Of a stretch of 25,376 bases of DNA, positions 4,401-25,198 are shown piece by piece. The position numbers were made by a program, and so were the translations under genes. Numbering within the stretch: the first letter of the stretch is position 1; every line of letters starts with the position of its first letter. The notes beneath the pieces are model-generated. The model was not told the DNA's origin. It was given only the letters and a program-made list of their open reading frames with translations, and did not search any database. Origin of the DNA: a bacterium (GTDB lineage Bacteria; JAHJDO01); contig JBDRTG010000001.1 of the NCBI GenBank assembly GCA_043824255.1, forward strand, positions 1-25,376, in the 5' to 3' direction.

Positions 4401-5218
4401 TAGAAATTCTTATATCTGTCACATACAGAGACGCATTGATAGTTGACCCATGCTTTCCAGGCACATGGTGTTTGGAGCTTGAAAATCACATCCTGCCTAA
4501 AAGGAGAATATATAAACGTCAGCGCATAAGCGCATCCAACATTTGGCTTAACTATCTGTTTAAAGTCGACTAAGCCATTTATAAAGATATTTTCAAAACG
4601 TCTCCAGCGAATTTCTCCAGGATATCCATGATAACTAACACTGAGATTGAGCTCTTCTTCCGGGAGGAATTTCTCATAGAAACATGAGCGTCCAAATTTC
4701 CCAAACGGACCTATTACTGCCCATTTAGTTACATATCCAAAAGAATCATATATTTTTTTAGCCTTTTTTGGCTGATGAGTGAGGTTATAGAATTTTACCA
4801 GAACTTGTTTTATGAGAAACTTGTTTCCCTGATTACTTATCCCTTTTTTTAATGTCTTCTCGAGAATCTTAATAGTTTTTTTATAATCCCTGAACTTGTT
4901 AAACTTGTTAGATGAGTTCAACAAGCTTTGTAATGTAACCGCGCTTCCTATAGAATCAGGGTCTTCCTTTAATATTTTCAGCCAGCTATTCAGCATCTCG
5001 TCATATTTACCTCTGGCTTCATATGCAAAAGCCATCCCCTCATATGCAGACAATGCATCTTTATTCTGGCCAATGTCTTTGGAGAAATATTCAATAGCTT
5101 CGTCATACCTGTTCTGATAAAGAGCCTTCCAGCCTCGAGACAAAGAATCAGCAACTGCATTTGCGCCTGTTGCTAAGCATATAAGTATTACTAGAGCGAA
5201 ATTTTTAAATAATCTCAT
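1454..5218 (-). CDS. Exported TPR + jelly-roll + DUF3857/transglutaminase-like protein, catalytically degenerate paralogue
   Basis: Signal peptide (ANA-VAD), many TPR-like repeats, 'WAVIGPF...GWNSLLIK' beta-domain, 'LEKDAVIEYKY', 'WLDIS', C-terminal 'ISPSDYPKFVDFCRRID'. Lacks the GDC and NH motifs. Confidence 0.8.
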   Translation of the reverse strand: MRLFKNFALVILICLATGANAVADSLSRGWKALYQNRYDEAIEYFSKDIGQNKDALSAYEGMAFAYEARGKYDEMLNSWLKILKEDPDSIGSAVTLQSLLNSSNKFNKFRDYKKTIKILEKTLKKGISNQGNKFLIKQVLVKFYNLTHQPKKAKKIYDSFGYVTKWAVIGPFGKFGRSCFYEKFLPEEELNLSVSYHGYPGEIRWRRFENIFINGLVDFKQIVKPNVGCAYALTFIYSPFRQDVIFKLQTPCAWKAWVNYQCVSVCDRYKNFYPLTNSFPVSLEEGWNSLLIKSVCEVELGSWTLKLRVTDLKEKNCTNLKFTDNLSTASLRGVPKVPKAFGSTTWQPETELLRESLPRNDIECLDDKALNYYHTGRLLYFQGLQDKGIKYLKNAVELQPKFSGFLYAIGKTYEQARFLPKIERENKAKDFYNKVIEYDSQYVPALGALGLYFERNKLYEEAIEKFRHTIKINSEFAHGYVDLGRVYRNRGWDLEATKSIDFALKINPELKDALVLKAKLYTDRNQFNNAERIYKKIGNIPVSLLLRQGKYDQTVAQYNASIKANPLRTDLRLELGRLYSKLGDYRGAYKQYKDILDIIPTYSMCYKLLGNLFYSENMTNSAIEAWESALKLNPRDYELRNLLAEIKASTAPYTLKKFNTVKLISDNKDLSELPNAYTASLYNGQVIILNTDGSYKETVHKVVKILSEIGIEKYGEIYIPGNLEELRVFLKDGTILEPVKIKGKNTYSIHGLEKDAVIEYKYTVEHKSYNIAKGYFRLPPFYFQAFNEAVLWSRYTAIFPSDINVSYISRNLGENIVKEEKNLEGNKKLVQFECYNIPGVTEEVMMPPKEDVLPNIIITASMKLDKMSDLYRSLIMGTSVVTSTLKDTTYEIIKDCNTPHEKAEAIYYYINRTIKHNSSKFEPAISTLAEKSGNKAILLKVMLDIAGLDATYVLVRPNTFAKMAAPYYGAFSTPLVKLNLQGNNVWLDISNKYLKFGEISSSLTNGDALVFNTTNYQICKIPPLDLSANGAETSLVININRDINGKSDCLAEETYPGNLSALFRLVFLEGIEKNLWGKYIEKGLANSFGEPVLEKAEFPNIDNPEEPFRIKYKFKISDFLQQVSGQDDEFIFNPIPFKLELSKKYIQKTQRKFPIRIKLKFTPLYLGQKFDINIPDNFIIKDVPQNITEESKFGKYLVEFTFNKNTLKVKQHFELFPQEISPSDYPKFVDFCRRIDALEKKTISLQKKMVSEIK
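4137..4231. repeat. REP/RPE-like palindromic element inserted in frame in the CDS
   Basis: Perfect 11-bp terminal inverted repeat TCATTGCGAGG / CCTCGCAATGA; internal perfect palindrome TCCCGAAAGCTTTCGGGA (4192-4209); similar ends to the intergenic element at 11871-11943. Confidence 0.8.
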
Positions 5219-8200
5219 TATTCAGCCACGGGTATCTTTTTAATTATTATTTCCTTGCTTTCGTTCTTATCTATGTCTGCAGCGAATTTACGAAATTCTG
5301 AATACTCTTCAGGCGAAACTCTTGAGACATCTAACTGAAGCTTTATTTTAACTATAATCTTATCAGGTAATTTACCATATATCATTGATAGAGAGCCGAA
5401 TTTGCTTTTAAGTTCAACATCTTGAGGCAAGTGAATTGCTTCATAACCTTGTGGGAGCAAGAATTCAGTTGTTTTGTTATCCATAAATGGATACGAAAGT
5501 AAGAGATCATGTTTTCGTATACTACTTGAAGCATACCTTTGAGTAAGTTTGTGCCTTAACATAACAGGATTAAATGAAAAACCTTCGGAAACAGGTTTTA
5601 AGAACTTTGGCACACTGACAGCATAATTGTATTTTATAGGAGTATCCAGTCCTGATAAATCAGGGAAATGGATATTTATTACTTGCACACCTTCAAATAT
5701 GGTGTTTAATAATTTTTCAAACTCCTCCTTTTGCTTTGAAGGAATTTGGAAAAAATATCTAATTCCAGAACAGAATGCTCCACTAACTATTTCTGTTCCG
5801 CCAATGTATGCGCTGCCATCGTTTTTTAATAGTACATTTTTATCTGAAATGCGGTTATTAGGAATGCCTGCGCTAACAGGTATTGCAGATAATATGCCCT
5901 TCCTTCGCTTCAGGTCTACTACAAACACACCGACTCCCTGATCCATCCATGGTATTTCATTGATACTGCTATATTCAGCAGTGCCATCCAGCCAGAGCTC
6001 TTTTCCACCCTTAAGTCTGATATGACATATTGCGTGATTAAATAAGCCAAGAGAGGCTTGGGATAAATCAAATCTGCCTCTGGATCTTGTTCTTACAAGT
6101 ACAATTTCCGAAGGAATCCCAGCTTCTTTAAGCATTGTCATAATCAGTAGAGCTTTATCCTTGCAGTCACCGAATTTCCTGCTAAATACCTGGCATGCTT
6201 TATATGGCTTATAACCATGTATGCCGAATTCCAGAGCTACATATCTAATTTTCTTAACAACATAATTATATATAGCTTCAATCTTATCAATTTCTGTATT
6301 CTTATTTTCTGTTAATGAGGCTACTATCTTTTTTATTTCAGGAGATGATTCCATCTGATCCCTTGTAAGATCAGCGTACCACCTAGCCATATCTGTCCAA
6401 TCCTTAAATGTAGATATAAGCAGATACGGAGTAATCTCTTGGTAAGGAGGCATACTCAACTCTTTGTCTATTTTTTCAATGTTCCTTTTCTCCCAAATAT
6501 AGCTAATAGTATCAGCATGTTTATCATAAATTTTTCGGGGAATGATATGGAGCTTTGGGCTATAAAAATAAAATTTGCGGTGTTTTGGAGCAATGAGAAT
6601 ATATTTAGAAAAAATTATAGGATTTGTATCTTTAAACAGGAACATATTTCCAAAGTAATCACCATATATATTGCCCCCTATATCGTTGACCTTGTATTCA
6701 AAATCAACAATATCCCCTTTTTCAAGAGAACTAAACTTAATGGTTTTTCTTCTGTAATCATAGTATAGTCTATACTGCGGGTTGGATGTGGACACGTCAG
6801 AGAATTTATAATAATCCATTGTTGTTCCATCTTTCTTTATAATGCGCGCTTTTTTAACAATAACTTCCTGGTCTCCAGGCACATAATATATGTTGAGATG
6901 ATTAAAATCCTTTACCCCTTTATCTGTAAGAACTTTAATGACTTGATGTACATATTCAGACGAAGTGCCATCCACATATACCCGTGAGATCGCTTTATCA
7001 AGAAGATAAACAGCTTCGCTATCAACATGTTTTAGGTTATTTGCAGAATTGATTATTGCTGTTATGTTCTCCGTGAAATTCTCTTCATAAGCTTCTTTCT
7101 TTGGACTCACAAATTCCTCATATTTCCTGAGCCATGTATAGTCAGGCTTTATTTTCAAAGCCTTATTAATAAACTCTTCAAACTTTTCATAATTACCGAT
7201 ACGTCGATATAGGAGCCCTAAACTTGAAAGTATTTCATAGTTCTCCGGACAGATTATCATTGCTTGATTACATACTTTAATGGCGTTATGGAATTGGTGT
7301 CTGTTGGCATATATCTTTGCCATGCGAAGATAGCTCCTCGTATCATACGGATTCAAGGCCGACATTTCACATAGTCTATTCAAGGCTTCTGAGCGCTTGC
7401 TCGTATTTAGTAAAATTTTAATAATTTTCTCTCTTGCATAATTATCCATAAAATCTATCTCTGAAAGCTTTCGGAGTTGTGTTAAAGTTTCTTCCTGTGA
7501 ATGATGCTCATAATAGCGAATTATACTATTCTGCGTTTCTTTCTTATATGTAGGAGCATCTTTTATCCCCTCAAGCAAAGGAGGAATAAGCGGAGTTAAA
7601 CCCTGTTTTGAGTAAATAGAGATTTTTAGACAAATTGCCGGGAGAAATGATGGATTAATATCAAGACATTTATTAACTATATCCAGGGCTTTTGTCAGGT
7701 TATTAGCATTTAGGTAATATTTTGCTAGTTGATAAAAGGCTATTGTAAAATTAGGATCTAATTTAATAGTTTTCTCTAACAGTTCCCTTCTTTTGTTTGG
7801 TTGATGTGCAAGATTTGCTCCAAGATAGTTATAGAAAGGATTATCAGGATTTAGTTGAATCGCTTTTGTTATACATAGAAAATCCTTATGTTTGGTTTCA
7901 TCATACGGCATGCTTTTATTGTATAGATATGCTAAATAATAATAGAGTCGTGCATTATTCGGGTCAGTTTTGATGCTTTCTTCAAGGCGGAATATATTTC
8001 CAGAGCTAGTCTTGTCAGTATCTTCCACAGGAACATGTTCTGCTATCTTTGCAGGTAAATTTGCGCGAACCTTTAGTCTTGATATACGTTTGCCGTCTGG
8101 AGATGTTATCCTGAAGAGCAATCCCCATTTCTCCTGTTTTTGACAGAGTTTAATCAGGATTTTGTTCCATCCTTTGTTAAGAAAGACCCTTGCATGACTC

Positions 8201-8970
8201 TGATCAAATCGTGCAGCATGATAATTATTATTGCTAAAAACTAATCTGTTATTTAGCCATATCTTAATTGCATCATCATGTCCCATTCTAAATGCAACTT
8301 CTCTTTTCTTATTTGATTTAACAAATGTTAGTAGATAACTACAGGTGTTTTTATTTGGTCTAAAAATAGCTCCAAGGTCAATGAATCCTAACGGAGATTC
8401 AATATTTATATGCCTCCATTTTACTTTTCTATCCTTACCCTGATATTCAGAAGAAATTTTTATTTCTGTCTCAGGCGGGTATTTTTTGTCAAAACCTGTT
8501 TTCCCATCATTGTCAAAGGGGCCTATTACAAACCAGTTTTGAATAAAACCAAGTTTTGCACACAAGCTCTTTGCCGCCTCAATTTTCCCATCTTCAAGGT
8601 ATAGTTGCAGCATGAACCATTTAGCAAGAGATTTTAGTGATTGGTTAGATTTTCTGCCTTTTCTTATATATTTACAGATTTTTAAGACGTTTGTTTTATT
8701 ACTGATACTGAAACGCATATCAAAAATTCTTCTTAGATATACCTCCTGCTGTACGCTGTCGGAAGTCTCTCTAATTAGCTTTTCATACAATGCAAATGCT
8801 TTATCATAATGCCCCTTTGCTTCCTCAGACAGTCCCGAGTTTTCTAATCTGCTGATATCATCTATATTTGGAGTTGTATAACCCGCAATTGGAACGAAAA
8901 GTATGGAAATAAAAACAAGAACGAGAAATAGAAATTTTAAATTTTGAATTTTGAATTTTAAATTAATCAT
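5218..8970 (-). CDS. Exported TPR + jelly-roll + DUF3857/transglutaminase-like protein with intact Cys-His-Asp triad
   Basis: Hydrophobic signal segment, TPRs, 'WFVIGPFDN...GHDDAIKIWLN...KGWNKILIK', 'LEKGDIVDFEY', 'IRYVALEFGIHGYKP', 'GDCKDKA', 'FNHAI', 'WLDGT'. Stop overlaps the next ATG (TAATG). Confidence 0.85.
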   Translation of the reverse strand: MINLKFKIQNLKFLFLVLVFISILFVPIAGYTTPNIDDISRLENSGLSEEAKGHYDKAFALYEKLIRETSDSVQQEVYLRRIFDMRFSISNKTNVLKICKYIRKGRKSNQSLKSLAKWFMLQLYLEDGKIEAAKSLCAKLGFIQNWFVIGPFDNDGKTGFDKKYPPETEIKISSEYQGKDRKVKWRHINIESPLGFIDLGAIFRPNKNTCSYLLTFVKSNKKREVAFRMGHDDAIKIWLNNRLVFSNNNYHAARFDQSHARVFLNKGWNKILIKLCQKQEKWGLLFRITSPDGKRISRLKVRANLPAKIAEHVPVEDTDKTSSGNIFRLEESIKTDPNNARLYYYLAYLYNKSMPYDETKHKDFLCITKAIQLNPDNPFYNYLGANLAHQPNKRRELLEKTIKLDPNFTIAFYQLAKYYLNANNLTKALDIVNKCLDINPSFLPAICLKISIYSKQGLTPLIPPLLEGIKDAPTYKKETQNSIIRYYEHHSQEETLTQLRKLSEIDFMDNYAREKIIKILLNTSKRSEALNRLCEMSALNPYDTRSYLRMAKIYANRHQFHNAIKVCNQAMIICPENYEILSSLGLLYRRIGNYEKFEEFINKALKIKPDYTWLRKYEEFVSPKKEAYEENFTENITAIINSANNLKHVDSEAVYLLDKAISRVYVDGTSSEYVHQVIKVLTDKGVKDFNHLNIYYVPGDQEVIVKKARIIKKDGTTMDYYKFSDVSTSNPQYRLYYDYRRKTIKFSSLEKGDIVDFEYKVNDIGGNIYGDYFGNMFLFKDTNPIIFSKYILIAPKHRKFYFYSPKLHIIPRKIYDKHADTISYIWEKRNIEKIDKELSMPPYQEITPYLLISTFKDWTDMARWYADLTRDQMESSPEIKKIVASLTENKNTEIDKIEAIYNYVVKKIRYVALEFGIHGYKPYKACQVFSRKFGDCKDKALLIMTMLKEAGIPSEIVLVRTRSRGRFDLSQASLGLFNHAICHIRLKGGKELWLDGTAEYSSINEIPWMDQGVGVFVVDLKRRKGILSAIPVSAGIPNNRISDKNVLLKNDGSAYIGGTEIVSGAFCSGIRYFFQIPSKQKEEFEKLLNTIFEGVQVINIHFPDLSGLDTPIKYNYAVSVPKFLKPVSEGFSFNPVMLRHKLTQRYASSSIRKHDLLLSYPFMDNKTTEFLLPQGYEAIHLPQDVELKSKFGSLSMIYGKLPDKIIVKIKLQLDVSRVSPEEYSEFRKFAADIDKNESKEIIIKKIPVAE
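8933..8964. repeat. Heptamer tandem repeat AATTTT[A/G] x ~4.5
   Basis: aatttta aattttg aattttg aatttta aatt, encoding 'NLKFKIQNLKF' on the minus strand. Confidence 0.7.
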
Positions 8971-11870: not shown

Positions 11871-11943
11871 TGTCATTGCGAACCGAAGGTGACGTTATCT
11901 CGCCTTTTTGGATTGCTTCGTTGCCATGCTTCTCACAATGACA
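11871..11943. repeat. REP/RPE-like palindromic element, intergenic
   Basis: TGTCATTGCGA ... GATTGCTTCG ... TCACAATGACA; terminal inverted repeat 10/11. Confidence 0.75.
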
Positions 11944-11950
11944 TTTTTGT

Positions 11951-11988
11951 ATTTTTTGTTGACATTTCAGGCAATTTTGGGGTACGGT
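11951..11988 (+). promoter_or_regulatory. Possible promoter for the 12031 gene, homologous to the NYN promoter
   Basis: TTGACA at 11959-11964; 11951-11978 is 24/28 identical to 9071-9098; -10 (TACGGT, 18-nt spacer) is weak. Confidence 0.4.
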
Positions 11989-12030
11989 AGCGTTAAAATA
12001 ACACCAAGTGTTCAAGGAGGAGATGACCTT

Positions 12031-12657
12031 ATGCTTGAAATAGTGGGCAAGAAAATTGATCTTGAGAAATCGGAACTTCTATACGATGAGCCGATCTCAA
12101 ATGAATGTTTCTCTGCCAATTGGATCATCCACAGCGGTGATTGGCAGGTTCAGGACGAGTGGCTTACAGGGAAGAATCCTGCCAATTGTCCGGGGATGAT
12201 ATTTCTGAAGGGGGATTATCCGGGAAATGTCATAGTGGACTTCGAAGCGCGAACGGTCTTACCCTGCACGCATGATATCGATTTCATGTGGAACGGCAGT
12301 TGGGACAAAGATAAGAATCAACGAGGCCCTGCCTACGTTGCAGGTTTAGAGGGATGGTGGACTGGGAAAGTGGGCATTGAAAAGTCTCCTGACTACAAAC
12401 TCACCGCCGCAACTCCATTGTTTGATTTTGACCCCGGACGAACCTACCACATTCAAGGGGGGAGTATTGACGGTCATTGCTTCATATTCGTAAATGGGCA
12501 ATTGGCTCTTGAAGTGACCGATCCTGACCCCATCGACTCCCAGAGATTCACAAAAGTAGGATTTGAAGCGTATTGCAGCCATATCCAGATTCGGAATGTG
12601 AAAATCATGCGCCTCGCTTGGCATCCTGTCCCTCTTAAGTACTCGCCAGAATTCTAG
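12031..12657 (+). CDS. Hypothetical protein, probable concanavalin/LamG-like beta-sandwich
   Basis: AGGAGG RBS before ATG 12031. Pattern 'GDWQVQDEWLTG...GNVIVDFEA...IFVNGQLALEVTDPDPI...KVGFEAYCSHIQIRNVKI' resembles DUF1080/DUF1961-like folds. Confidence 0.65.
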   Translation: MLEIVGKKIDLEKSELLYDEPISNECFSANWIIHSGDWQVQDEWLTGKNPANCPGMIFLKGDYPGNVIVDFEARTVLPCTHDIDFMWNGSWDKDKNQRGPAYVAGLEGWWTGKVGIEKSPDYKLTAATPLFDFDPGRTYHIQGGSIDGHCFIFVNGQLALEVTDPDPIDSQRFTKVGFEAYCSHIQIRNVKIMRLAWHPVPLKYSPEF

Positions 12658-15330: not shown

Positions 15331-15359
15331 TTGACATAGATTTGATACAAAGCTACAAT
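15331..15359 (+). promoter_or_regulatory. Sigma70-type promoter of the catabolic operon
   Basis: TTGACA-17 nt-TACAAT. Confidence 0.8.
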
Positions 15360-15360
15360 A

Positions 15361-15378
15361 AACCAACTATATAGTTGG
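15361..15378. promoter_or_regulatory. Putative operator
   Basis: Perfect 16-bp palindrome CCAACTATATAGTTGG (15363-15378) between the -10 box and the RBS; related sequence upstream of the TetR gene. Confidence 0.6.
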
Positions 15379-15386
15379 AGGAGAAT

Positions 15387-16370
15387 ATGAAGAGTTCAGG
15401 GATGGGAATCTATGTCCCAAAGTTAAGTGATAGGCTTCGCGGAAGACAGATTCCACATATTGGGGTTCTGAACAGGGAAGAATTAGAAGAAGTAATTGCT
15501 CTTGGAGAGTGGTTTCGAGAGAACCGTTATGATGCGACTTATGTGGATCTTCTGAAGGGGCGTGTGCAGTGTTTGTTGTTTGTGTACGAATCCACAAGAA
15601 CCAGGCTTGGGTTCTCAGCAGCCATGGCACAGCTGGGCGGATCCACAATGTATATGGCAGCAAAAGATACCCAGATGGGAAGAGGTGAATCAATCGTAGA
15701 TACAGCACGTGCTATTGACCAATACATTGATGTGTTTTCAGCCCGACTCTGGAAGCATGAGGATATCGAGCTGGCTTGTAAGAATATGAGTGTACCTGTT
15801 CTTAATGCGTGCACACCCCTTGACCATTCTACGCACGTAATTGGTGAATTAATGGCAATTAAGCAGGCTAAAGGCAAGCTTGAGGGGCTTAATCTGGTCT
15901 ATACCGGTATGGCAAGAGGTATATTGCATTCATTTATCAGGGTTTGCCCAGTTCTTGGAATTAATCTTACTCTGGCGGTTCCCGCTTCTTATGCAGAAAC
16001 TATTAACCAAGATATTTTGGCAGAGGGTAAGAAAAAGGCAGAAATAGCTAAAACACGACTTGAGGTTTGTAGTGACTTAAAAGAGGCTGTAAAGGATGCT
16101 GATTTTATTCAGGCAAGTACTTTGATACGGAGTATGCTTGCTGGTGAACAATCGCCAGAAGAAAAAAAAGTTAAAATACCTGAGTGGACAGTAACAGATG
16201 AAATCCTTAATTGTGCAAGAGCTGACGTGTTGTACAGTCATTCTGGTCCTGCTCGCAGAGGTGTTTGCGTCACTGATGAAGTTATGGATGGACCAAGGTC
16301 AATTATTCCTCAAGAGGCAAAAAATGCCATTTATTCCAAGAAGGCTCTGTTGGCTTTGATAGTAAAATAG
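15387..16370 (+). CDS. Ornithine/aspartate carbamoyltransferase-superfamily protein with atypical active site
   Basis: 'ESTRTR', 'GESIVDTARA', 'VPVLNA', 'VTDEVMD' match the OTCase fold; HPxQ, HCLP and ENR motifs altered. Start at ATG 15387 after GGAGGAG. Confidence 0.85.
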   Translation: MKSSGMGIYVPKLSDRLRGRQIPHIGVLNREELEEVIALGEWFRENRYDATYVDLLKGRVQCLLFVYESTRTRLGFSAAMAQLGGSTMYMAAKDTQMGRGESIVDTARAIDQYIDVFSARLWKHEDIELACKNMSVPVLNACTPLDHSTHVIGELMAIKQAKGKLEGLNLVYTGMARGILHSFIRVCPVLGINLTLAVPASYAETINQDILAEGKKKAEIAKTRLEVCSDLKEAVKDADFIQASTLIRSMLAGEQSPEEKKVKIPEWTVTDEILNCARADVLYSHSGPARRGVCVTDEVMDGPRSIIPQEAKNAIYSKKALLALIVK

Positions 16371-16382
16371 AAAGGGAGTTTT

Positions 16383-17435
16383 ATGGATAAAGTTAGAATT
16401 GGTATTGTTGGATCAAAATTTGCCGCTGATTTCCATTGTGATTCATACAGCAGAGATAGAAATGCTGAAGTAGTAGCAGTTGCAGCAATTGACAATCTTG
16501 AGGAGATTTCCTCAAAGTGGAATATTCCCAGCACCTATGAAGACTATAAGGAAATGTTAAAACGCGATGACATTAGTCTTGTCTCTGTCTGTGTACCAAA
16601 TTTTCTGCATCATGATGTAGTTATTGCTGCAGCAAAGGCAGGAAAGCATGTAATTTGCGAAAAACCCCTTGCCACTACTATAGAAGATGCAAAAGAAATG
16701 ATTGAAGCATGTAAAAAAGAAAGAGTAAAACTGTTTTACGGTGAGGACTGGTGTTTTGCTCCTGCGCTTATGCGTACAGTCGAGATTATTAAAGAAGGAG
16801 CCATCGGTGAGGTTCTCTATGTTAAGGCAAAGGAGACTCATAATGGTACTCACAGTGCGTTTGCCAAGAATGCAAAGTATTGTGGAGGTGGCTCTCTAAT
16901 TCATCTTGGTATTCATCCGATTGGATGGATTCTTCATTTTCTTGGTAATCAGGGTAAGAACAGGGTTATTGAGGTAATTGGTAAGACAAACGCCGGTGGA
17001 GAAGATAACTATGTTCACAAGGATAATAGTGGAGAAGACTGGGCCTTAGGAATTATAAAGTTTGCCAATGGCGAGCATGCATTTGTGGAAGGGAATTATA
17101 TTACTGTAGGTGGTATGGATGATAGAGTTGAGATTTATGGTACTGAAGGTGTGATCAAGGTAGATATGACATTTGGCTCGCCTGTAAGTGTATATAGTAG
17201 GCGTGGGTATTCATATTGTATTGAAAAGGCTGATAATACACTCGGCTGGACCAAACCAGCCGTTGATGAATTCTACAATCTGGGCTATGTTAGTGAGCTC
17301 GCATATGTTGTTGAGTGTGTGTTAAATAATAAGGAGCCCATCTATGATCTCAGTGGTGAAATGGGGCTGAAATGCATAGAGATTATTCAAGCGATGTACC
17401 AGTCAAACAGAGAAGCGAAAACAGTCAAAATATAA
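16383..17435 (+). CDS. Gfo/Idh/MocA-family oxidoreductase
   Basis: 'RIGIVGSKF', 'PNFLH', 'GKHVICEKPLA', 'GGGSLIHLGIHPI'. Confidence 0.92.
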   Translation: MDKVRIGIVGSKFAADFHCDSYSRDRNAEVVAVAAIDNLEEISSKWNIPSTYEDYKEMLKRDDISLVSVCVPNFLHHDVVIAAAKAGKHVICEKPLATTIEDAKEMIEACKKERVKLFYGEDWCFAPALMRTVEIIKEGAIGEVLYVKAKETHNGTHSAFAKNAKYCGGGSLIHLGIHPIGWILHFLGNQGKNRVIEVIGKTNAGGEDNYVHKDNSGEDWALGIIKFANGEHAFVEGNYITVGGMDDRVEIYGTEGVIKVDMTFGSPVSVYSRRGYSYCIEKADNTLGWTKPAVDEFYNLGYVSELAYVVECVLNNKEPIYDLSGEMGLKCIEIIQAMYQSNREAKTVKI

Positions 17436-17447
17436 TTATAAAAAAGC

Positions 17448-18683
17448 ATGTTGCAAATGGCAAAATTTACACAAGAGGATTGTTTGATGCCCTTTGAGAT
17501 ACCAGGGCTCAAGTTCAGAAACCAGTTTATTGTCGCTTCAGGTCCAACTACTAAACATATAAGTCAAATTATTGAAGCTGAACGCTGTGGCTGGGGCGCT
17601 GCTAGTCTGAAGCTTGCTATAGAACCTGCTCCTTATATCAATCGCAAGCCAAGATACAAATTCTGGAAGAAGGAGGGCTATCTTGCATTTTCTGCTGAGA
17701 CCAGACTAATTCCTGAGCAGATGCTAAAACTTCTTGATCAATCCCGCAAAAAGACAAGAGAGATTAAACTTATTGCCAATATCGCCTATGTTGGTAATAA
17801 GGGTATGGCGGGTTGGGTTAAGATGGCAAAGAAATGTGTTGATGCTGGTGCTCATGCTATTGAGCTTAATATGTGCTGCCCAAATATGTCATTTAATTTA
17901 GAGGTCTCAGGCGAGGATAATCATACACTACAAAGCGGTGCCAGTCTTGGACAAAATGCAGAGATTGTTGGTGCCGCGACTAGAATTATCTCAGAAGCTG
18001 TTGATGTGCCAATAGTTGTAAAACTGACACCTGAAGGAGGTAATATTGGTCAGGTAGCCAGGGCCTGTTTTGAAAATGGCGCCCGTGTTGTTGGCACTAC
18101 TGCTAATCGTCTGGCTATTCCTGAATTTGATATTGCTAATCCGGCTAAAGGACCATATAGATTGCAGCATGAGCCATCAATGTCATGTTTCTCTGGTGAG
18201 TGGATAAAACCCTTGTCCAGACGTGATGTTTTTGAAATGCGAAAAGCTTGTGGATCCGAAGCGATTATTCTTGGCACAGGCGGAATCTGTGATTATGTTA
18301 GTGCTGTTCAGATGATGATGTGCGGTGCTGATATGATTGGCATCTGCACTGAAACAATGAAACGCGGTTTTGATTTTTTGCCTGATCTTATTAAGAATAT
18401 CAAGAAATTCATGGCTGAGCATGGCTATAAGTCTTACAGGGGTTTTCGTGATAAGGAGGTTGAGGCAATTTATACAGCTGATAAACTTACATTGGATGAT
18501 GCGTATGCTCAGGTTGATCCTGAGTTGTGTACAGGCTGCGGCAGATGCATGAAAATAGGTCATTGCTATGCTATCTCAATAGTTGATAAAAAAGCTGTTG
18601 TGAATCCCGAGGATTGCACAGGATGTTCCACATGCATGGACTTCTGTCCAGCTAATGCAATTTCTTTTGTAAATAAAAGATGA
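17448..18683 (+). CDS. Dihydropyrimidine dehydrogenase PreA-like / dihydroorotate dehydrogenase-family flavoprotein with C-terminal 2x[4Fe-4S]
   Basis: 'FRNQFIVASGP', 'ELNMCCPN', 'PIVVKLTP', 'GTGGI', C-terminal CTGCGRC and CTGCSTCMDFCP. Exact start uncertain (17448/17457/17487). Confidence 0.85.
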   Translation: MLQMAKFTQEDCLMPFEIPGLKFRNQFIVASGPTTKHISQIIEAERCGWGAASLKLAIEPAPYINRKPRYKFWKKEGYLAFSAETRLIPEQMLKLLDQSRKKTREIKLIANIAYVGNKGMAGWVKMAKKCVDAGAHAIELNMCCPNMSFNLEVSGEDNHTLQSGASLGQNAEIVGAATRIISEAVDVPIVVKLTPEGGNIGQVARACFENGARVVGTTANRLAIPEFDIANPAKGPYRLQHEPSMSCFSGEWIKPLSRRDVFEMRKACGSEAIILGTGGICDYVSAVQMMMCGADMIGICTETMKRGFDFLPDLIKNIKKFMAEHGYKSYRGFRDKEVEAIYTADKLTLDDAYAQVDPELCTGCGRCMKIGHCYAISIVDKKAVVNPEDCTGCSTCMDFCPANAISFVNKR

Positions 18684-19687
18684 GCAAAAAAGTTCTTGTT
18701 CTAGCAACAAGTTTTCTGGATTCTTTAATCTCTCATCCTGCGAAGGAAGGGCAGGCTAAGAAAATGCTGGATGAATTATCGGAGAATTCAAATGGAGAGA
18801 TTGAAATAATTTATCGCTGCGAAAGAAATCCTGAAGAACCCTTAAAAGTAGAGGAACTTAAAAATATTACTGCGGTAATTGCTGATCTGGAAAAATATGA
18901 CAGGGAATTGTTATCTCAAGTGGGTATAAAAGCAGGAGGTTCTTTAGAATTGATAGCAAGATATGGAATAGGTTATAGCTCAGTGGATGTTAAGGCTGCC
19001 ACTGATTATAGAGTTATAGTTACAAACTGCCCGGGATGTAATGCCCTACCCACTGCAGAATGGACACACTCTACAATTCTTGATGTAGCTGGACGACGAA
19101 TTTCTCATTACAGGACTGCCAGTCAGGGCAAACCCAAAGAGGGGCTTTCTCGTCTGGATATCTCAGGCAAGATTCTGGGAATAATTGGAACTGGGTTGAT
19201 AGGTAAACTAGTGCTCAAATTAATGAATGGATACGAGATGAAGGTTATTGCTTATGATCTCTATCCGGATAAAAACTGGGCAACCCAAAACAATGTTGAA
19301 TATATGGAGCTGAATAAATTATGCCAGACCGCAGATATTATAACCCTGCATGCAGCAGCTAATGAAACTATTATCAGGAAAGAACAGATTGATTTAATGA
19401 AAGATACAACGATTTTAGTGAATTGTGCGCGAGGAATTTTGGTGGATTACAAGGCTGCTTACAATTCAGTCAAAGCAGGAAAAATCTGGGGTTATGGGGT
19501 TGATGAAATATGGCAGGATAAGAGTCTATCTTTAGAAGGGTTGAATATCATTGTCAGCCCACATGTGGGTTCAGATACAGATAAGGGGAAAATCGGTATG
19601 CAAATAATGTCAACCCAGGCAGTGATTGATTTTTTAGAAGGGAAGATACCAAAGCATGTAATTAATAAAGAGGTGCTGCAATTATGA
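18680..19687 (+). CDS. D-isomer-specific 2-hydroxyacid dehydrogenase (SerA-like)
   Basis: 'ARYGIG', 'GIIGTGLIG', 'ITLH', 'VNCARG', 'SPHVG'; ATGA overlap with upstream gene. Confidence 0.9.
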   Translation: MSKKVLVLATSFLDSLISHPAKEGQAKKMLDELSENSNGEIEIIYRCERNPEEPLKVEELKNITAVIADLEKYDRELLSQVGIKAGGSLELIARYGIGYSSVDVKAATDYRVIVTNCPGCNALPTAEWTHSTILDVAGRRISHYRTASQGKPKEGLSRLDISGKILGIIGTGLIGKLVLKLMNGYEMKVIAYDLYPDKNWATQNNVEYMELNKLCQTADIITLHAAANETIIRKEQIDLMKDTTILVNCARGILVDYKAAYNSVKAGKIWGYGVDEIWQDKSLSLEGLNIIVSPHVGSDTDKGKIGMQIMSTQAVIDFLEGKIPKHVINKEVLQL

Positions 19688-21327
19688 ATAAAAAACAAAT
19701 TCTTTTAACAAGAAAAGGACTGGAGAATCCCGGATGGAAGGATACAGGAGTTTGTCTGCCTGAATTTTCCATGGATGATATGTTGAGTAGAACCAAAGTA
19801 TATCCCACATGGATTCATATAGCGCCCGGGAACCTTTATGTAGCAGAGATTGCTCCTATCCAGCAAGCATTACTTGAATCTGGAGAGGCAAGAGAAGGAA
19901 TTATAGGAATAGAGACATGGGATGAGGAGATAGTGGACAGAGTTTATCATCCCAGAGATAACCTTCGAATAAGTATAGCAATGTCTTCAAAAGGAGAAAA
20001 TCAGATAAAGCTTATTGCTTCTACTGCAGATGTGCTGTATGCAGATACTTCCAGACAAGGGCAGTGGAAGAGAACATTAGAATATTTTGCCAAACCTTCT
20101 TTGCAAATGGTTAGTGTTACTTGCACAGAAAAGGGTTATAAAATCCACGATTCTCAGGGAAATGTTTATCCTGTGATATTGGAAGATATAAAGAATGGAC
20201 CAGGAAAAGCTACACATCTCATGAGTAAGATAGCGAGTTTTGCTTATCATCGATATAAGAATGGTAGTACTCCAATAGCATTTATTAGTATGGATAATTG
20301 CTCAAAAAACGGGGAAAAACTATTTGATGCGGTTAGCTTCATTGCTAAAGAATGGATTTATACCAGCAAACTGGTAGAAAAGGAATTTCTAAGATATTTA
20401 GAAAGCGAGAAGGTTTCTTTTCCATGGACCATGATTGATAGAATAACCCCCAGACCATCTTCGGGAAATGTTGAATTGCTTAAAAGCAAGGGAATTGAAA
20501 ACATGGATATCATAAAAACGCGCAAAGGAACATTTGCAGCGCCTTTTGTGAATACTGAGCCCATATCTTACTTAGTGATAGAAGATAATTTTCCCAATCG
20601 AAGACCGCCTCTGGAAAAAGCAGATCAATCCAAAAATAGAGTAATTCTTGTGAATAGTTCTGAAGCAGTAGATAAGTGTGAAAAAATGAAACTTGGAACC
20701 TGCCTTAATCCTATTCATACCACTTTAGCAACTTTTGGCTGTCTCTTAGGATATGATTATATCTTTCAGGAGATGAATGATCCCTTATTGAAAGAGCTGG
20801 TGTATAGACAGGCTTATGAGGAAGGTCTGCCGGTAGTAGATAATCCTGGAGTAATTAATCCTGAGGAATTCCTGAGGCAGGTATTAGAAGAGAGGTTAGT
20901 TAATCCTAATATTCCTGATACTCCTCAGAGAATAGCTACAGATACATCCCAAAAAGTAGGGGTCAGGTATGGAGGCACAATAAAAGCATATGGAAAGAAT
21001 GCCAAAAATTTAAAATATATTCCCTTGGCCATTGCTGGATGGTACCGATATTTACTGGGCATTGACGATAGAGGAAAACCATTTGAATTAAGTCCTGATC
21101 CTTTACTTAAAGAACTTAAAAAATATATAACTGGAATTGAACTGGGAAAACCAGAGACTTTAGGGAATAAGCTAAAACCTGTTCTCTCTAATAAGGAGAT
21201 ATTCAGTTTGGACCTTTACTCTGTTGGCATTGCCCAGAGGGTTGAAGAATATACAAGAAGAATGATAACCGGTATTGGAGCTATTAAAAAGACATTACAA
21301 AGTGTTTTAGGGGAGGAGAGAAAATGA
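19684..21327 (+). CDS. Mannitol dehydrogenase-family protein (fructuronate reductase UxuB-like)
   Basis: 'VTCTEKGY', 'SMDNCSKNG', 'FPWTMIDRITP', 'EKMKL..CLNPIH', 'DTPQRIATDTSQK'. Confidence 0.9.
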   Translation: MNKKQILLTRKGLENPGWKDTGVCLPEFSMDDMLSRTKVYPTWIHIAPGNLYVAEIAPIQQALLESGEAREGIIGIETWDEEIVDRVYHPRDNLRISIAMSSKGENQIKLIASTADVLYADTSRQGQWKRTLEYFAKPSLQMVSVTCTEKGYKIHDSQGNVYPVILEDIKNGPGKATHLMSKIASFAYHRYKNGSTPIAFISMDNCSKNGEKLFDAVSFIAKEWIYTSKLVEKEFLRYLESEKVSFPWTMIDRITPRPSSGNVELLKSKGIENMDIIKTRKGTFAAPFVNTEPISYLVIEDNFPNRRPPLEKADQSKNRVILVNSSEAVDKCEKMKLGTCLNPIHTTLATFGCLLGYDYIFQEMNDPLLKELVYRQAYEEGLPVVDNPGVINPEEFLRQVLEERLVNPNIPDTPQRIATDTSQKVGVRYGGTIKAYGKNAKNLKYIPLAIAGWYRYLLGIDDRGKPFELSPDPLLKELKKYITGIELGKPETLGNKLKPVLSNKEIFSLDLYSVGIAQRVEEYTRRMITGIGAIKKTLQSVLGEERK

Positions 21328-22472
21328 CGGAGAAAATAATTAAGTATACCGAAATTAAATCTGCAGATAGTTGTAAGTATGACGGATTATCGTTAGGAGA
21401 GGTTATGTTAAGATTTGATCCCTATGATGTGCCTACTGCTCAGGCTCGGGAAATGAGAATCTTTCAGGGTGGAGGAGAAACCAATGTTGCTTGTGGTCTA
21501 TCTTATACTTTTGGCTTACGTACCGGAGTATTGACTGCCTTAGTTGATGATGTAATAGGTAAAAATATTGGGAATCAATTTAGAGCAGCGGGAGTGGATA
21601 CCAGCAAAATTATTTGGTTTAATACTGAGAATGATAGTTCCAGATTCTCTACGGATAAAAAGGGTACTTTGATGAATGGAATCAATTTTACTTATACAGG
21701 GAAAGGAGTTATTCCATCCGATACCTGTTATTACAGAGGGCATTCTGCAGTAAGAGAATTGAAAGAAGGTGATTTTAACTGGGATAGGATATTTGGAGAG
21801 GAGGGAGTAAGGGTATTTAATACAGGTGGTATTTATACATTAATTTCACATTCCTCTTCAGGGCTTGCTATAGAGGCAGTGAAAAAAGCAAATGAGTATG
21901 GCACTTTCGTGTCTGCTGATTTGAACTATAGGTCAAAAGTAGAACCAGATAAAAGCAAAGCTCAGCAGATCAATCAGAAAATCGCACCTCTCTTAGGCTT
22001 CTTGGTAGGTAATGATTCTGATCTAAGTGATGCTCTAGGTTACAAGACCCAAGTTGCCAAAAATGCACCTTTTGATGAATGGATAGATGCTTATAAGAAA
22101 ACAATTGCGCAGGTGGCAAAAGATTTTCCAAACTTAAGTTTAATTGGTACTCAATGGCGAGGGGCTACTAACGCTGATCTGATAAGCTGGGCTGCAGTAT
22201 TATACGATGCTTTAGCAGGGAACTTTTATGTATCAGCTCTCAGAAAGGATGTTCCAATCAAGGACCGTACTGGTGGAGGAGATTCTTATGCCTCCGGGGT
22301 TTTAGCTGCATTGTTAAAGGATAAAGACCTACAGACCGCTGTGGAATGGGGGGCATCCCATGGTATGCTGGTCCAAGAAACGCCTGGAGATATTACTATG
22401 ATGGATCAGAAAGCAGTAGAAGCGGAAGTAAAAAGAGTTCTGGCTGGTGGAGGAGTTAAGGCTTCCAGATAA
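21324..22472 (+). CDS. kdgK: PfkB sugar kinase, 2-keto-3-deoxygluconate kinase-like
   Basis: 'SLGEVMLRFDP', 'GGGETNVA', 'DLNYRSK', 'DRTGGGDSY', 'TPGDITM'. Confidence 0.85.
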   Translation: MTEKIIKYTEIKSADSCKYDGLSLGEVMLRFDPYDVPTAQAREMRIFQGGGETNVACGLSYTFGLRTGVLTALVDDVIGKNIGNQFRAAGVDTSKIIWFNTENDSSRFSTDKKGTLMNGINFTYTGKGVIPSDTCYYRGHSAVRELKEGDFNWDRIFGEEGVRVFNTGGIYTLISHSSSGLAIEAVKKANEYGTFVSADLNYRSKVEPDKSKAQQINQKIAPLLGFLVGNDSDLSDALGYKTQVAKNAPFDEWIDAYKKTIAQVAKDFPNLSLIGTQWRGATNADLISWAAVLYDALAGNFYVSALRKDVPIKDRTGGGDSYASGVLAALLKDKDLQTAVEWGASHGMLVQETPGDITMMDQKAVEAEVKRVLAGGGVKASR

Positions 22473-22502: not shown

Positions 22503-23243
22503 ATGTCAGATTATCAAAGAGATAGAATTCGGGTAGATAGAGTTATCCGCAAGAGTGGAATAGTAGTGGTGATGAATAAGAATCATGTTAAGGAACCAGA
22601 ACATATGATTACTACTATGTTGGAGATTTATAAGGCAGGGTATGTAGCCGAGTGTACGTTTCGGATTGAAGAAGCTATCTTAAAAGAAGGAATGCAAGAA
22701 CTGACAAAGAAAAGAGCAGAATGTCCTAAAGATAACCCTTTTATACTTGGAGTTGGAAGTGTAATCAATCCAAAAGAATTAGAATCAGCAATAGACATGG
22801 GATTTGATATGATTGTAGCTCCTGCCAACGTTATGGGAGGTTACGGTGAGGGAAAAGACTTTGTGAAGCTCACCCGGGAAGCAAATGTGTTTTCAGCACC
22901 TGCAATACTTAGCCCTACAGAGTTGCAGTATTTCATCGAAAGAGATGATGAATTGGAACCAGATGCAATTAAGGTTTTCCCTGCAAGTGTTCATGGACCA
23001 AGCGGGATCAAGGCTTTACTTGCTCCTTATGTCAGAGAAAGACATGCTAGTCGAATTATAATGCCTACAGGTGGAGTAGATTATGAAACTGGGCCCAAGT
23101 ATCAAGAAGCGATTCTTTCCAGGGGATATACTCCTGTTCTGGGTATGTCTGCTCCTCTTAAATTAGTGGAAAAGGAAGAAAAGCCAGGAGATGTTGAAAC
23201 AGTCAGAGGATCTTTGGCCCAGTTCAAACAAAAATTCAGCTGA
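22503..23243 (+). CDS. KDPG/KHG aldolase-like (Eda/KdgA family), divergent
   Basis: 'ECTFR', 'LGVGSV', 'SPTE', Schiff-base Lys motif 'KVFPA', 'MPTGGV'; follows the kdgK-like gene. Confidence 0.8.
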   Translation: MSDYQRDRIRVDRVIRKSGIVVVMNKNHVKEPEHMITTMLEIYKAGYVAECTFRIEEAILKEGMQELTKKRAECPKDNPFILGVGSVINPKELESAIDMGFDMIVAPANVMGGYGEGKDFVKLTREANVFSAPAILSPTELQYFIERDDELEPDAIKVFPASVHGPSGIKALLAPYVRERHASRIIMPTGGVDYETGPKYQEAILSRGYTPVLGMSAPLKLVEKEEKPGDVETVRGSLAQFKQKFS

Positions 23244-23277
23244 TTGGCAATAAGTTTGGCACATAGGTTGTAATAAA

Positions 23278-23293
23278 ACTAACTGAATGGTTT
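23278..23293. promoter_or_regulatory. Putative TetR operator
   Basis: AACTAACTGAATGGTT immediately before the TetR ATG; 12/16 identical to AACCAACTATATAGTT at 15361. Confidence 0.4.
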
Positions 23294-23299
23294 GAATAT

Positions 23300-23911
23300 A
23301 TGCAGGAGAGAGTTAAAAGAACGAAATCTAAAATTCTACAGGCTGCACAGCAGGAATTTTCCGATAAAGGGTTTCATGGCGCAAGAATGGATAGTATTGC
23401 AGAAAAAGCAGGGATAAATAAACAACGCATATATGCCTATTTCAAAAATAAGGAGAACCTGTTTTGTGAAGTGCTGAAAGGCTGCTTCCAACTGATAGCG
23501 GACCATGAACGCGTTTTTACGGATCTGCTTGAGAAAGATATTCCTCATCTTGAGGATAGAATACTGCGTTATTATATGTCTTTTCACGAAAAATATCCTC
23601 ATTTCTGGCGGCTTATTGCATGGGAGAATCTGGATGGAGGAAAACGTTCTAATACTATTAGGGGTATTAGAGAGCAACCGTTCAGACATCTGAAAAATTT
23701 ATATCAAAAAGGTCAAAAGCAGGGGATATATAAAAAAGAGGTTTCTTTTGAAGCATTCATATTCCTTTTATCTGCTGTGTCATTTTTCTATTATTCCAAT
23801 CAGAAAACTATGTCTCAAACTCTTAATGTGAATTTATTTAATACAAAAATTCAAGATAAATTAGTTCGGGAAATTTTGCTTCTTTTACATCCACAAAGTG
23901 GAAAGAGCTAG
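23300..23911 (+). CDS. TetR/AcrR-family transcriptional regulator (NicS/RutR-like C-terminus)
   Basis: 'ILQAAQQEFSDKGFHGARMDSIAEKAGINKQRIYAYFKNKENLF'; 'FWRLIAWENL'. Confidence 0.95.
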   Translation: MQERVKRTKSKILQAAQQEFSDKGFHGARMDSIAEKAGINKQRIYAYFKNKENLFCEVLKGCFQLIADHERVFTDLLEKDIPHLEDRILRYYMSFHEKYPHFWRLIAWENLDGGKRSNTIRGIREQPFRHLKNLYQKGQKQGIYKKEVSFEAFIFLLSAVSFFYYSNQKTMSQTLNVNLFNTKIQDKLVREILLLLHPQSGKS

Positions 23912-23913
23912 CT

Positions 23914-24351
23914 ATGGGTAAGCAAGTTGATATAGCAAGTCTTTCAGTTGCACATATTATAGACCGATACGGTGTTAAATTGACGCTGCTGATTGCGTGC
24001 GCAATCTTATGTTTGAGTTTTTTGATCATGGCTCAAAATTCTGTTATTTGGCTGATTATAGCCACATTTCTCATAGGGACAGGTTCTGGTATTGCGCTTC
24101 TTTCGTTCGTTGTTGAGATTCAGAAAGTGGCTAAAGGTCTGCCTGGAAAATTTATATCCTTATACTTCATGTTGAGCGGTATCATGGGTATTGTGGCAAC
24201 AGGTGTTGGCGCTATAGTAGTAGCCACTTCCATAATAGGGATTGGTCCATTGATGGTTATTGGTGGCACGATTGCTGCATCTGGGGGTGTAATAACGTTA
24301 CGATCTCCCGAAGGAAATATACCTATAAAGGCAAAGGATGCATTTTTTTGA
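23914..24351 (+). pseudogene. MFS transporter fragment (about 4 TM segments)
   Basis: Motif A-like 'HIIDRYGVK' followed by hydrophobic helices; 145 aa versus ~400 aa for a full MFS protein. Confidence 0.55.
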
Positions 24352-25198
24352 AACCATGACACAAATTAGAATAGAAAGGATGAAGAAAAAAGTCAATTAT
24401 TACCGGCAACATAATGCAAATCTTCTGGCTGAAGTTCCAGCGGAAGCCTTTAACGGTTGGGGCAAGAAAGAGATAGAGATACCGATAAAAGAGACTGCAT
24501 TTTTAATTATGCATTCATGGAACTACGGGATTTCTCCGAAGTTAGAGTATGGTCCGAATACCAGATTCAAAGGACTCTGGAACGTAGTTGAATATGTCCC
24601 ACGAGCAATTGAGATCACAAAAAGGGTAGTAGGCCCTCTTTTAGAGAAGGTTCGTTCCTCCAAATTAACCATTATTCATGTGGGCAGCTCAGAAAATTAC
24701 TGCAAAAATTATCCCGGTTATCAAAAAGCCAAAGCCTTATCTGGTGACCCTTCGCCAATTTTAGAGGGAGCAGTAAAAAAGAATTGGAGCAAGATAAAAA
24801 CTGTGGAACGGTGTGGCGAAGAGAATCTTCAGAACATCCAGAATGCCCAGAAGTATGTAGATTTTCCTAACATTACCCGGCCACGAGGAAATGAATGGGT
24901 AGTTATCAATAGTCATCAGTTGAATGCTTTATGCCGGCGTCTAAAAATATGGAACTTGATTTATACTGGTTTTGCTATTAACTGGTGTCTTTTTGAGAGC
25001 CCGGCAGGAATGATAGATATGAGTCGACTTGGCTATGGTTGTTCCACCATCAAGGAGGCGGTAACAGCGGTAGAAAATGATTGGACTGCTCGTGAAGAAT
25101 TGTGTAAGAAATTAGCACTTTGGAAAATTGCCATGTCCTATGGTTATGTTATAAATTTAGAAGATTTTCTCAAAGCATTGGAAGGGGAAACTAAATAA
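24338..25198 (+). CDS. Isochorismatase-like cysteine hydrolase family protein
   Basis: 'ETAFLIMHSW', 'LTIIHV', 'LIYTGFAINWCL' (Cys nucleophile position), 'EAVTAVE'. Start may be 24356 or 24380. Confidence 0.75.
   Translation: MHFFETMTQIRIERMKKKVNYYRQHNANLLAEVPAEAFNGWGKKEIEIPIKETAFLIMHSWNYGISPKLEYGPNTRFKGLWNVVEYVPRAIEITKRVVGPLLEKVRSSKLTIIHVGSSENYCKNYPGYQKAKALSGDPSPILEGAVKKNWSKIKTVERCGEENLQNIQNAQKYVDFPNITRPRGNEWVVINSHQLNALCRRLKIWNLIYTGFAINWCLFESPAGMIDMSRLGYGCSTIKEAVTAVENDWTAREELCKKLALWKIAMSYGYVINLEDFLKALEGETK

Follow-up and report, generated by a model that had tools for sequence, protein, structure and literature searches.

We describe here a transferase of the ornithine transcarbamylase (OTCase) fold, 327 amino acids long (15387..16370; coordinates are on the plus strand unless stated otherwise), which represents a conserved and apparently undescribed branch of the OTCase family in which the glutamine of the HPxQ motif is replaced by histidine. 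It is encoded in a window of 25,376 nucleotides, the whole stretch of DNA that was analysed (contig JBDRTG010000001.1 of the bacterial assembly GCA_043824255.1). The best explanation, to which we give a probability of roughly 0.45, is that this OTCase-fold enzyme is a catabolic amide:phosphate acetyltransferase, which would pass the N-acetyl group of an amino-hexonate intermediate to phosphate, so that acetyl phosphate is formed and then ATP through acetate kinase. A little less confidently, we propose that it would be the first natural amide:phosphate acetyltransferase, having changed its donor from carbamoyl to acetyl phosphate and converting the energy of an N-acetyl amide into ATP in an undescribed eight-enzyme anaerobic route from a nitrogen-containing hexose acid to 2-keto-3-deoxygluconate (KDG), in uncultured sediment bacteria, to which clades in Bathyarchaeia are related.

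Results

A rebuilt active site on an intact fold

The gene is unbroken, with an ATG at 15387 behind a GGAGGAG ribosome-binding site, and 327 amino acids is the commonest length among the homologues, which bears out the intact reading frame reported in the preliminary description. Both domains of the fold, OTCace_N and OTCace, are present (Pfam; 103 and 94.5 bits, over the cut-offs). The best Foldseek matches of the AlphaFold model (pLDDT 93, pTM 0.91) are OTCases, with TM 0.88 to 1a1s, and comparison with human 1ep9 gives Z 40.4 and rmsd 1.9 over 308 residues (VIA); the ESM Atlas returned generic OTCace clusters only. A three-copy model scored 0.89, against 0.02 for the best of three controls, although this score may reflect likeness to solved trimers; the mark set for it is reached by 20 of 30 solved pairs and by 1 of 23 single chains. 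Contacts agreed to at least 91% between the trimer runs, with pLDDT of at least 90, and the predicted interface includes residues 94-96 and 68-71/287-289, as in shared active sites.

Motifs were mapped by alignment to P. furiosus OTCase and to the genome's own ArgF (28% identity). Conservation was counted over 120 rows, namely the query and 119 of its best 120 matches (the fragment P0024 was left out), and these best 120 homologues are 73-92% identical to the transferase. The phosphate-binding STRT motif is kept (residues 69-72; 15591..15602), preceded by a family-specific FVYE, and so are R120 (15744..15746), the conserved phosphate-binding Arg that corresponds to human R141, and Q96 of the 80s loop (15672..15674), which in OTCases completes the phosphate site of the neighbouring subunit. 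All the phosphate ligands (S69, T70, R71, T72, Q96, R120 and H147) are found in 120/120 rows.

The remainder of the site is changed. HPxQ is replaced by H147-S-T-H150 (15825..15836), the carbamoyl-binding Gln being His in 120/120 rows. GDGNN is replaced by GMARG (G174-G178; 15906..15920), whose R177 would lie one residue off the position of the carboxylate-binding R167 of ATCase, and DxxxSMG by STLIRSML (S244-L251; 16116..16139), which is one residue longer, has lost the amino-binding Asp and has gained an invariant R248. HSGP (H285-P288; 16239..16250) stands in place of HCLP; His and Pro are kept in it and known variants of the HxLP/HPGP-type motif are mixed, and its exchange of Leu for Gly would widen the acceptor pocket. 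Finally, EAENR has become EAKNA (K312-N-A314; 16314..16328) with loss of the Arg. Six of the new residues, Y67, H150, R177, R248, S286 and G287, occur in 120/120 rows, as do T149, S249, M250 and all of H285-S-G-P288, and A314 occurs in 119/120. S148 (49/120) and K312 (5/120) are variable, and the motifs of the family are therefore HxTH and EAxNA. The motif changes given in the preliminary description could thus each be placed by alignment, and the conservation it looked for in homologues was found for HxTH and HSGP (120/120), but its HSTH and KNA are too narrow to describe the family.

On the acceptor side, the ornithine-binding Asp and Asn are both absent and two Arg have been gained, and the acceptor would therefore be expected to carry a carboxylate and no second amine. 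The position of human D263 is Ser or Ala in 116/120 rows, and D263A of the human enzyme is inactive, according to the available text of PMC11256359.

On the donor side, the available text of PMC4581275 describes SxRT as binding phosphate and HPxQ as the main contact to the carbamoyl moiety, with HxLP working through main-chain oxygens and with ATCase and UGTCase lacking the C-terminal Arg (its Table 1). Table 1 of PMC4016543 shows HPxQ in every family it covers, alongside variants of the HPGP and H[ST]LP type. Neither the missing C-terminal Arg nor the altered HxLP, both of which had been taken to argue against carbamoyl phosphate, is thus decisive alone, since known families vary likewise. 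Judged against these two tables, the change without precedent is that of Gln to His in HPxQ. In human OTCase, the equivalent Q171A substitution lowers the efficiency for carbamoyl phosphate 79-fold, and among Q171 variants tested in yeast only Q171E was not amorphic (available text of PMC11256359); a case of neonatal OTC deficiency carried Q171H, and Q171 itself is in contact with E326 and R330 (available text of PMC6098936). The equivalents of these two residues are E310, which is kept, and A314, and the invariant E310 could pair with H150.

Three clades with a patchy distribution

We sorted 85 genome and metagenome loci by motif into three clades: clade A with HxTH (66 loci, including the window transferase), clade B with HTTQ (14 loci) and clade C with HPxQ and HPGP (5 loci). 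FxYESTRT, GM[AT]R, RSxLAGE and ExxNA are common to all three. The Q96 position is invariant in clade A and Met in most clade B and C rows, and P0121, an early member of clade A, has HTTQ and keeps the Gln. A quick IQ-TREE tree of 66 rows, rooted at the midpoint only, placed A, B and C on one branch (SH-aLRT 100), with A and B nested within it (100). On these alignments the transferase belongs to a well-supported clade with relatives reaching Bathyarchaeia: named sources are Planctomycetota, Kiritimatiellia, Lentisphaerae and Firestonebacteria assemblies for clade A and Bathyarchaeota for clade C, and identities of 45-52% link the archaeal sister clade to OTCases of archaea and thermophiles. 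Carriers are patchy, with 2/9, 5/17, 2/65 and 5/401 genomes in the groups searched.

Among 1.84 billion representatives searched, three full or near-full members of the family came first, followed by ordinary OTCase-like proteins. When 129 representatives of suitable length were aligned, 122 of the 126 outside the family kept HPxQ and none had HxTH. Several OTCase-like representatives (P0129, P0145, P0147, P0154, P0168, P0180, P0240 and others) combine a retained HPxQ with non-canonical acceptor loops, which suggests, as far as motifs can tell, further unnamed transcarbamylases. Database labels on homologues of the window transferase read 'ornithine carbamoyltransferase' or 'hypothetical', and the literature searched, in which few subscription journals were covered, describes neither the clade nor an enzyme of this kind that uses acetyl phosphate.

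Decay, of which substitutions unique to this genome would be a sign, is ruled out by the near-invariance of the new residues over the 120 rows and by a dN of 0.047 against a dS of 0.51 (ratio about 0.09) relative to the nearest relative, L001; among the other pairs, one gave 0.12/2.7 and two were saturated. Moreover, the genome holds three OTCace_N genes: that of the window, an argF beside argD and a pyrB beside pyrR. Both the ArgF and the PyrB are over their own cut-offs, ArgF with 423 (cut-off 306) and 388 (cut-off 280.85), and the existence of these separate canonical genes rules out an ArgF or PyrB role for the transferase.

Comparison with known transcarbamylases

By profile score and motif, the transferase falls outside all named transcarbamylase families. 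It stays below every curated family cut-off, with OTCase the best (228 against 306, also 224.7 against 280.85). The earlier conclusion that it is not ArgF and probably has a new acceptor is well supported by that score, by the 423 of the genome's own ArgF against the same cut-off, and by the Ser or Ala at the D263 equivalent. With OTCase of the ArgF, P. furiosus type (TIGR00658) it shares the fold, SxRT, the beta-4 Arg, the 80s-loop Gln, the first His of HPxQ and, by prediction, the trimer. However, its family has His for the HPxQ Gln, SxxxRSML, GMARG, HSGP and EAxNA, and the transferase itself has FVYESTRT instead of FxKxSxRT, two new invariant Arg and a sugar-acid context. The absence of a C-terminal Arg and a Gly or Ser in the HxxP motif recall ATCase and the pseudo-ATCases including UGTCase, as do two Arg, one close to the position of R167 and one in the 240s loop, and these suggest a carboxylate acceptor. 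In contrast to these enzymes, it has neither RxQxER nor HPxQ and scores 129 against a cut-off of 263, its cluster has no purine-catabolic context, and there is a separate pyrB in the genome.

PTCase and YgeW of reductive uric acid degradation resemble it in that a phosphorolytic role at the end of a reductase and ring-hydrolase module is likely, and in that the acceptor is not ornithine. By analogy with that pathway, in the available text of PMC12507026, the window transferase is likely of the catabolic phosphorolytic type. Unlike clade A, however, in which carbamate kinase is found in 0/14 carriers and acetate kinase is sometimes the neighbour, those enzymes keep HPxQ and pair with carbamate kinase; the scores of the transferase are far from theirs (202 against 500 for PTCase, 49 against 500 for YgeW), and its partners would lead to KDG, not to diaminopropionate. 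In addition, it has FVYE rather than the Gln of FxQxSxRT of PTCase, and lacks the (Y/W)(G/W) loop and the C-terminal extension. The knotted group (AOTCase, SOTCase, YgeW) differs by a proline-rich loop and extended 120s-loop inserts that the transferase, which can be aligned to unknotted OTCases, does not have (90 against 288 and 49 against 500). The DPTCase and DBTCase of natural-product clusters also show an acceptor change within the OTCase branch, with the Asp of DxxxSMG replaced and a loop Arg added, but they keep HPxQ, have HDLP and TRWQ motifs, and belong to a biosynthetic context.

Carbamate kinase and acetate kinase

According to the available text of PMC6022934, carbamate kinase is required by catabolic transcarbamylases, most of which are encoded close to it. 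The absence of this kinase from the window, noted before, extends to the whole genome (87% complete): none was over cut-off in any of the 14 carrier genomes, which are incomplete and among which this one is counted, and the only amino-acid-kinase-fold match among 93 scanned neighbour ORFs, nearly all of them drawn from a set of 148 candidates, was a UMP kinase. As a control, carbamate kinase was over cut-off in 2 of 14 reference genomes, and near-full-length matches in 2 of 49 non-carriers show that it is rare there too.

Acetate kinase, by contrast, is sometimes the neighbour. In L023, in L026/L064 (identical protein) and in L039 it adjoins the transferase gene directly on the same strand, in three different gene orders and with transferases that are 71-77% identical. 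The adjoining kinases pass the cut-off of TIGR00016, which covers acetate and propionate kinases, and their alignment with the housekeeping acetate kinase of the genome shows no notable gaps. Pta was not found in any of 94 transferase loci. Recruitment of an acetate kinase but no Pta suggests direct formation of acetyl phosphate by the cluster, in which the transferase would be the only member with an acyl-phosphate-type site. The arrangement was found in 3/50 non-redundant clade A loci, the window not among them. Presence of the kinase per genome is not discriminating, with 14/14 carriers and 39/49 non-carriers having one, and the acetate kinase near a creatininase-type gene in G011 and G012 lies beside a Pta-like gene, looks housekeeping and was not counted. 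The earlier suggestion of a possibly different acyl-phosphate donor thus gains indirect support from the missing carbamate kinase (0/14) and from the three acetate kinase arrangements.

The gene cluster and its partners

The transferase leads a tight run, in which the first six genes overlap or are 12 bases apart. Domains and orthologue counts mark a Gfo/Idh/MocA NAD-dependent dehydrogenase (16383..17435) as a core partner, and a PreA-like FMN/Fe-S enzyme with an altered pyrimidine pocket (17448..18683) as another. Domain and profile matches then identify a member of the D-2-hydroxyacid dehydrogenase family (18680..19687), a mannitol-dehydrogenase-family protein (19684..21327; best match fructuronate reductase, below cut-off), a PfkB kinase resembling KDG kinase (21324..22472) and a divergent KDPG/KHG aldolase (22503..23243). 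A TetR regulator (23300..23911), which in L001 stands at the head of the cluster as a copy of 83% identity, is followed by an isochorismatase-like hydrolase (24338..25198), recognized by features and predicted structure and without a Pfam match. Between these two, 23914-24351 contains an MFS-like ORF of 145 amino acids that does not reach the Pfam cut-off and is probably what is left of a transporter. Elsewhere, the window encodes two tandem proteins of about 1250 amino acids with TPR, DUF3857 and DUF3858, one with a transglutaminase-like core (1454-8970, minus strand), and a 249-amino-acid ORF without a Pfam match at E 0.001 that by eye resembles sugar-binding beta-sandwich proteins (11908-12657).

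When aligned with dihydropyrimidine dehydrogenase (DPD), of which it is a rewired form, the PreA-like enzyme keeps ELNMCCP and is changed in the FSAE and ANRL segments, which we take to be two of those that bind the ureido edge of uracil in pig DPD. Because two pyrimidine-binding segments are changed while the catalytic ELNxxCP segment is kept, its substrate is probably not uracil. Most full-length PreA relatives are PreA-PreT/GltD-ferredoxin fusions of 880-910 amino acids, those of the window and of L039 being short; contig C11 carries a separate GltD-like gene.

By thresholded neighbour counts in the 50 non-redundant clade A loci, many of them short, an orthologous Gfo is present in 16 and an orthologous PreA in 14, and at least one queried partner gene occurs in 20 of the 28 clade A loci of at least 5 kb. 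We further compared the 14 carriers, which include kin, with 49 non-carriers of the same groups, all genomes being incomplete. The Gfo orthologue was found in 11/14 carriers against 1/49 non-carriers, the PreA orthologue in 13/14 against 1/49, and an orthologous creatininase-type hydrolase in 11/14 against 2/49. Gfo and PreA occur together in a single non-carrier, G027; it contains the SDR, aldolase and kinase as well, and is perhaps an incomplete carrier. Neither this genome (87% complete) nor its congener yielded a creatininase-type orthologue; speculatively, the isochorismatase-like hydrolase might stand in for it as a candidate pathway amidohydrolase.

In place of the mannitol-dehydrogenase-family protein, relatives carry a non-homologous UxuB-type SDR of similar predicted function, and 2 of 3 SDRs tested pass the D-mannonate oxidoreductase cut-off. 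Two kinds each of kinase and aldolase occur among relatives as well. Taken together, this exchange of non-homologous counterparts and the variety of kinases and aldolases suggest that the predicted route ends at KDG. In L106, L109 and L111 the Gfo gene lies away from the transferase, beside 2-hydroxyacid dehydrogenase, SDR, aldolase and kinase genes. L092 of clade C, in which the Gln is kept, has the same PreA-PreT and Gfo partner families (47% and 45%), and the pathway is therefore probably older than the His. L088-L092, of the same clade, adjoin amidohydrolase, DapA-like aldolase and LarA-family racemase genes. In L024 and L100-L103 the transferase gene is immediately preceded by one for a xylose-isomerase-like TIM-barrel protein, which might serve the route as a dehydratase or eliminase, and is followed by PreA-PreT where the contig is long enough.

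None of the compounds considered accounts for all eight enzymes. A plain hexuronate route is disfavoured, as the genome, 87% complete, yielded neither UxuA nor UxaC. No fit to all eight enzymes was reached with N-acetyl-hexosaminuronates, considered for a NagB-like gene that occurs in 4/50 loci only, or with elimination products of GlcNAc or MurNAc, ectoine, pseudouridine, N1-substituted uracils, 3-deoxyglucosone hydroimidazolones or sialic acids.

Upstream of the transferase lies a sigma-70-like promoter, TTGACA-17-TACAAT (15331..15359; 11/12 matches). One site of this grade is the chance expectation (mean of 1.5 in shuffles), and better support for the transferase being first in its operon, as described earlier, comes from a near-identical promoter upstream of tetR in L001 (about 830-880). 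A perfect 16-bp palindrome (15363..15378, no strand), found as a perfect copy once only in the genome, lies between the -10 box and the ribosome-binding site and is a likely TetR operator. Operator-like and promoter sites related to 15331-15378 also precede tetR in the window (about 23275-23299) and in L001, and these shared sites suggest TetR control of the cluster. RNA contigs from one run cover scattered short operon pieces at low depth, the transferase coding region remaining uncovered, which speaks neither for nor against expression.

Discussion

If the enzyme is an amide:phosphate acetyltransferase, phosphate held by S69-T72, R120 and the Q96 of the neighbouring subunit would attack the amide carbonyl, which H147 would polarise, and the usual tetrahedral intermediate would form. 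H150, backed by E310, would shape the pocket for a methyl group instead of an amide NH2, R177 and R248 would hold the carboxylate of an acceptor without a second amino group, and G287 would leave room for a polyol chain. In the proposed pathway, the PreA(-PreT) enzyme would reduce a C=C bond of a cyclic nitrogen-containing substrate and the creatininase-type enzyme would open the ring. The Gfo, 2-hydroxyacid and mannonate-oxidoreductase-like dehydrogenases would convert the carbon chain into 2-keto-3-deoxygluconate, which would be passed on to KdgK and Eda. Acetate kinase, together with the departure of the freed amine as ammonia, would draw the uphill phosphorolysis forward; the clusters showed no transaminase. 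To our knowledge, no natural member of the transcarbamylase fold is specific for acetyl phosphate. E. coli ATCase accepts acetyl phosphate in vitro, of which the literature searched gave no account.

Several observations favour the acetyl-phosphate reading. His is found at the Gln position in 120/120 rows while all phosphate ligands are retained, HxTH occurs in none of the 126 non-family representatives, 122 of which keep HPxQ, and both Q171A and Q171H harm human OTCase (available texts of PMC11256359 and PMC6098936). The usual catabolic sink, carbamate kinase, is found in 0/14 carriers, and acetate kinase without Pta adjoins the gene in three arrangements. The context is catabolic, with Gfo, PreA and creatininase-type partners co-occurring with the transferase, and the layout of reductase, ring hydrolase, transferase and kinase parallels reductive uric acid degradation (available text of PMC12507026). 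However, the Gln has been retained in clades B (HTTQ) and C (HPxQ) and in P0121 (HTTQ), and Gln-keeping L092 shares the PreA-PreT and Gfo partners. An amide NH2 could also donate a hydrogen bond to His, and HxxP has probably retained its main-chain oxygens. The acetate kinase link holds in 3/50 loci only and the kinase is common anyway (39/49 non-carriers), carbamate kinase is rare in non-carriers too (2/49) with all genomes incomplete, and none of the compounds considered fits all eight enzymes. Acetate kinase may also accept carbamoyl phosphate. A hint that it does so appears in the available text of PMC9843812.

In the main rival reading, the enzyme is a transcarbamylase of catabolism, whose substrate for phosphorolysis is a new ureido (N-carbamoyl) sugar acid derived from a reduced and opened uracil- or hydantoin-like ring, with ArgF, PyrB or acetate kinase instead of carbamate kinase draining the carbamoyl phosphate. 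We regard both this reaction and this sink as unlikely, though as the strongest of the alternatives. A PreA-type reductase, a cyclic amidohydrolase and a transcarbamylase form an established module (available texts of PMC4016543 and PMC12507026), the Gln persists in clades B and C, the latter with an ATCase-like HPGP, ATCase and UGTCase bind carbamoyl phosphate without a C-terminal Arg (available text of PMC4581275), and ArgF and PyrB are present in the genome. Against this, carbamate kinase was found neither in the 14 incomplete carrier genomes nor among the 93 scanned neighbour ORFs, a change of Gln to His is damaging in human OTCase (available texts of PMC6098936 and PMC11256359), and the PreA partner is changed in two of the segments presumed to bind the ureido edge of uracil. 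The donor-site and kinase evidence would apply equally to another small acyl phosphate, formyl or propionyl, for instance in the deformylation of a ring-opened N-formyl intermediate, with an acetate/propionate-family kinase as the sink. TIGR00016 spans propionate kinases and creatininase-family enzymes include deformylases, yet nothing is specific to formyl or propionyl and the adjoining kinases align without notable gaps to the housekeeping acetate kinase, which makes this variant improbable. A similarly slim chance goes to the biosynthetic direction, in which an amino-sugar acid would be carbamoylated or acetylated, then cyclised and oxidised, as by ATCase, dihydroorotase and dihydroorotate dehydrogenase. 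No carbamate kinase would be needed, the forward reaction is the favoured one (available text of PMC4581275), and the three core enzymes mirror the pyrimidine module, but KdgK and Eda at the cluster end, TetR control and the patchy distribution fit substrate use, and the adjoining acetate kinase would be left unexplained. A divergent OTCase, or a decaying or non-catalytic copy, is very improbable and already largely refuted. OTCases are the best matches by sequence and fold and some homologues are so labelled, but the score lies below all family cut-offs, the ornithine-binding Asp and Asn are lost, a canonical argF is found beside argD elsewhere, and dN is 0.047 against dS 0.51, with the new residues invariant.

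SxRT, HPxQ and HxLP are treated as common to all known transcarbamylases in the available text of PMC4581275. A large conserved clade that breaks HPxQ therefore puts the determinants of donor specificity to the test in a textbook enzyme fold, and there is a real chance that the window transferase catalyses a new reaction. Should the donor be carbamoyl phosphate after all, the enzyme would still be a new transcarbamylase in an unknown sugar-acid pathway. N-acetyl groups are normally lost by hydrolysis; if the acyl phosphate is acetyl phosphate, they would instead feed substrate-level phosphorylation in energy-limited anaerobes.
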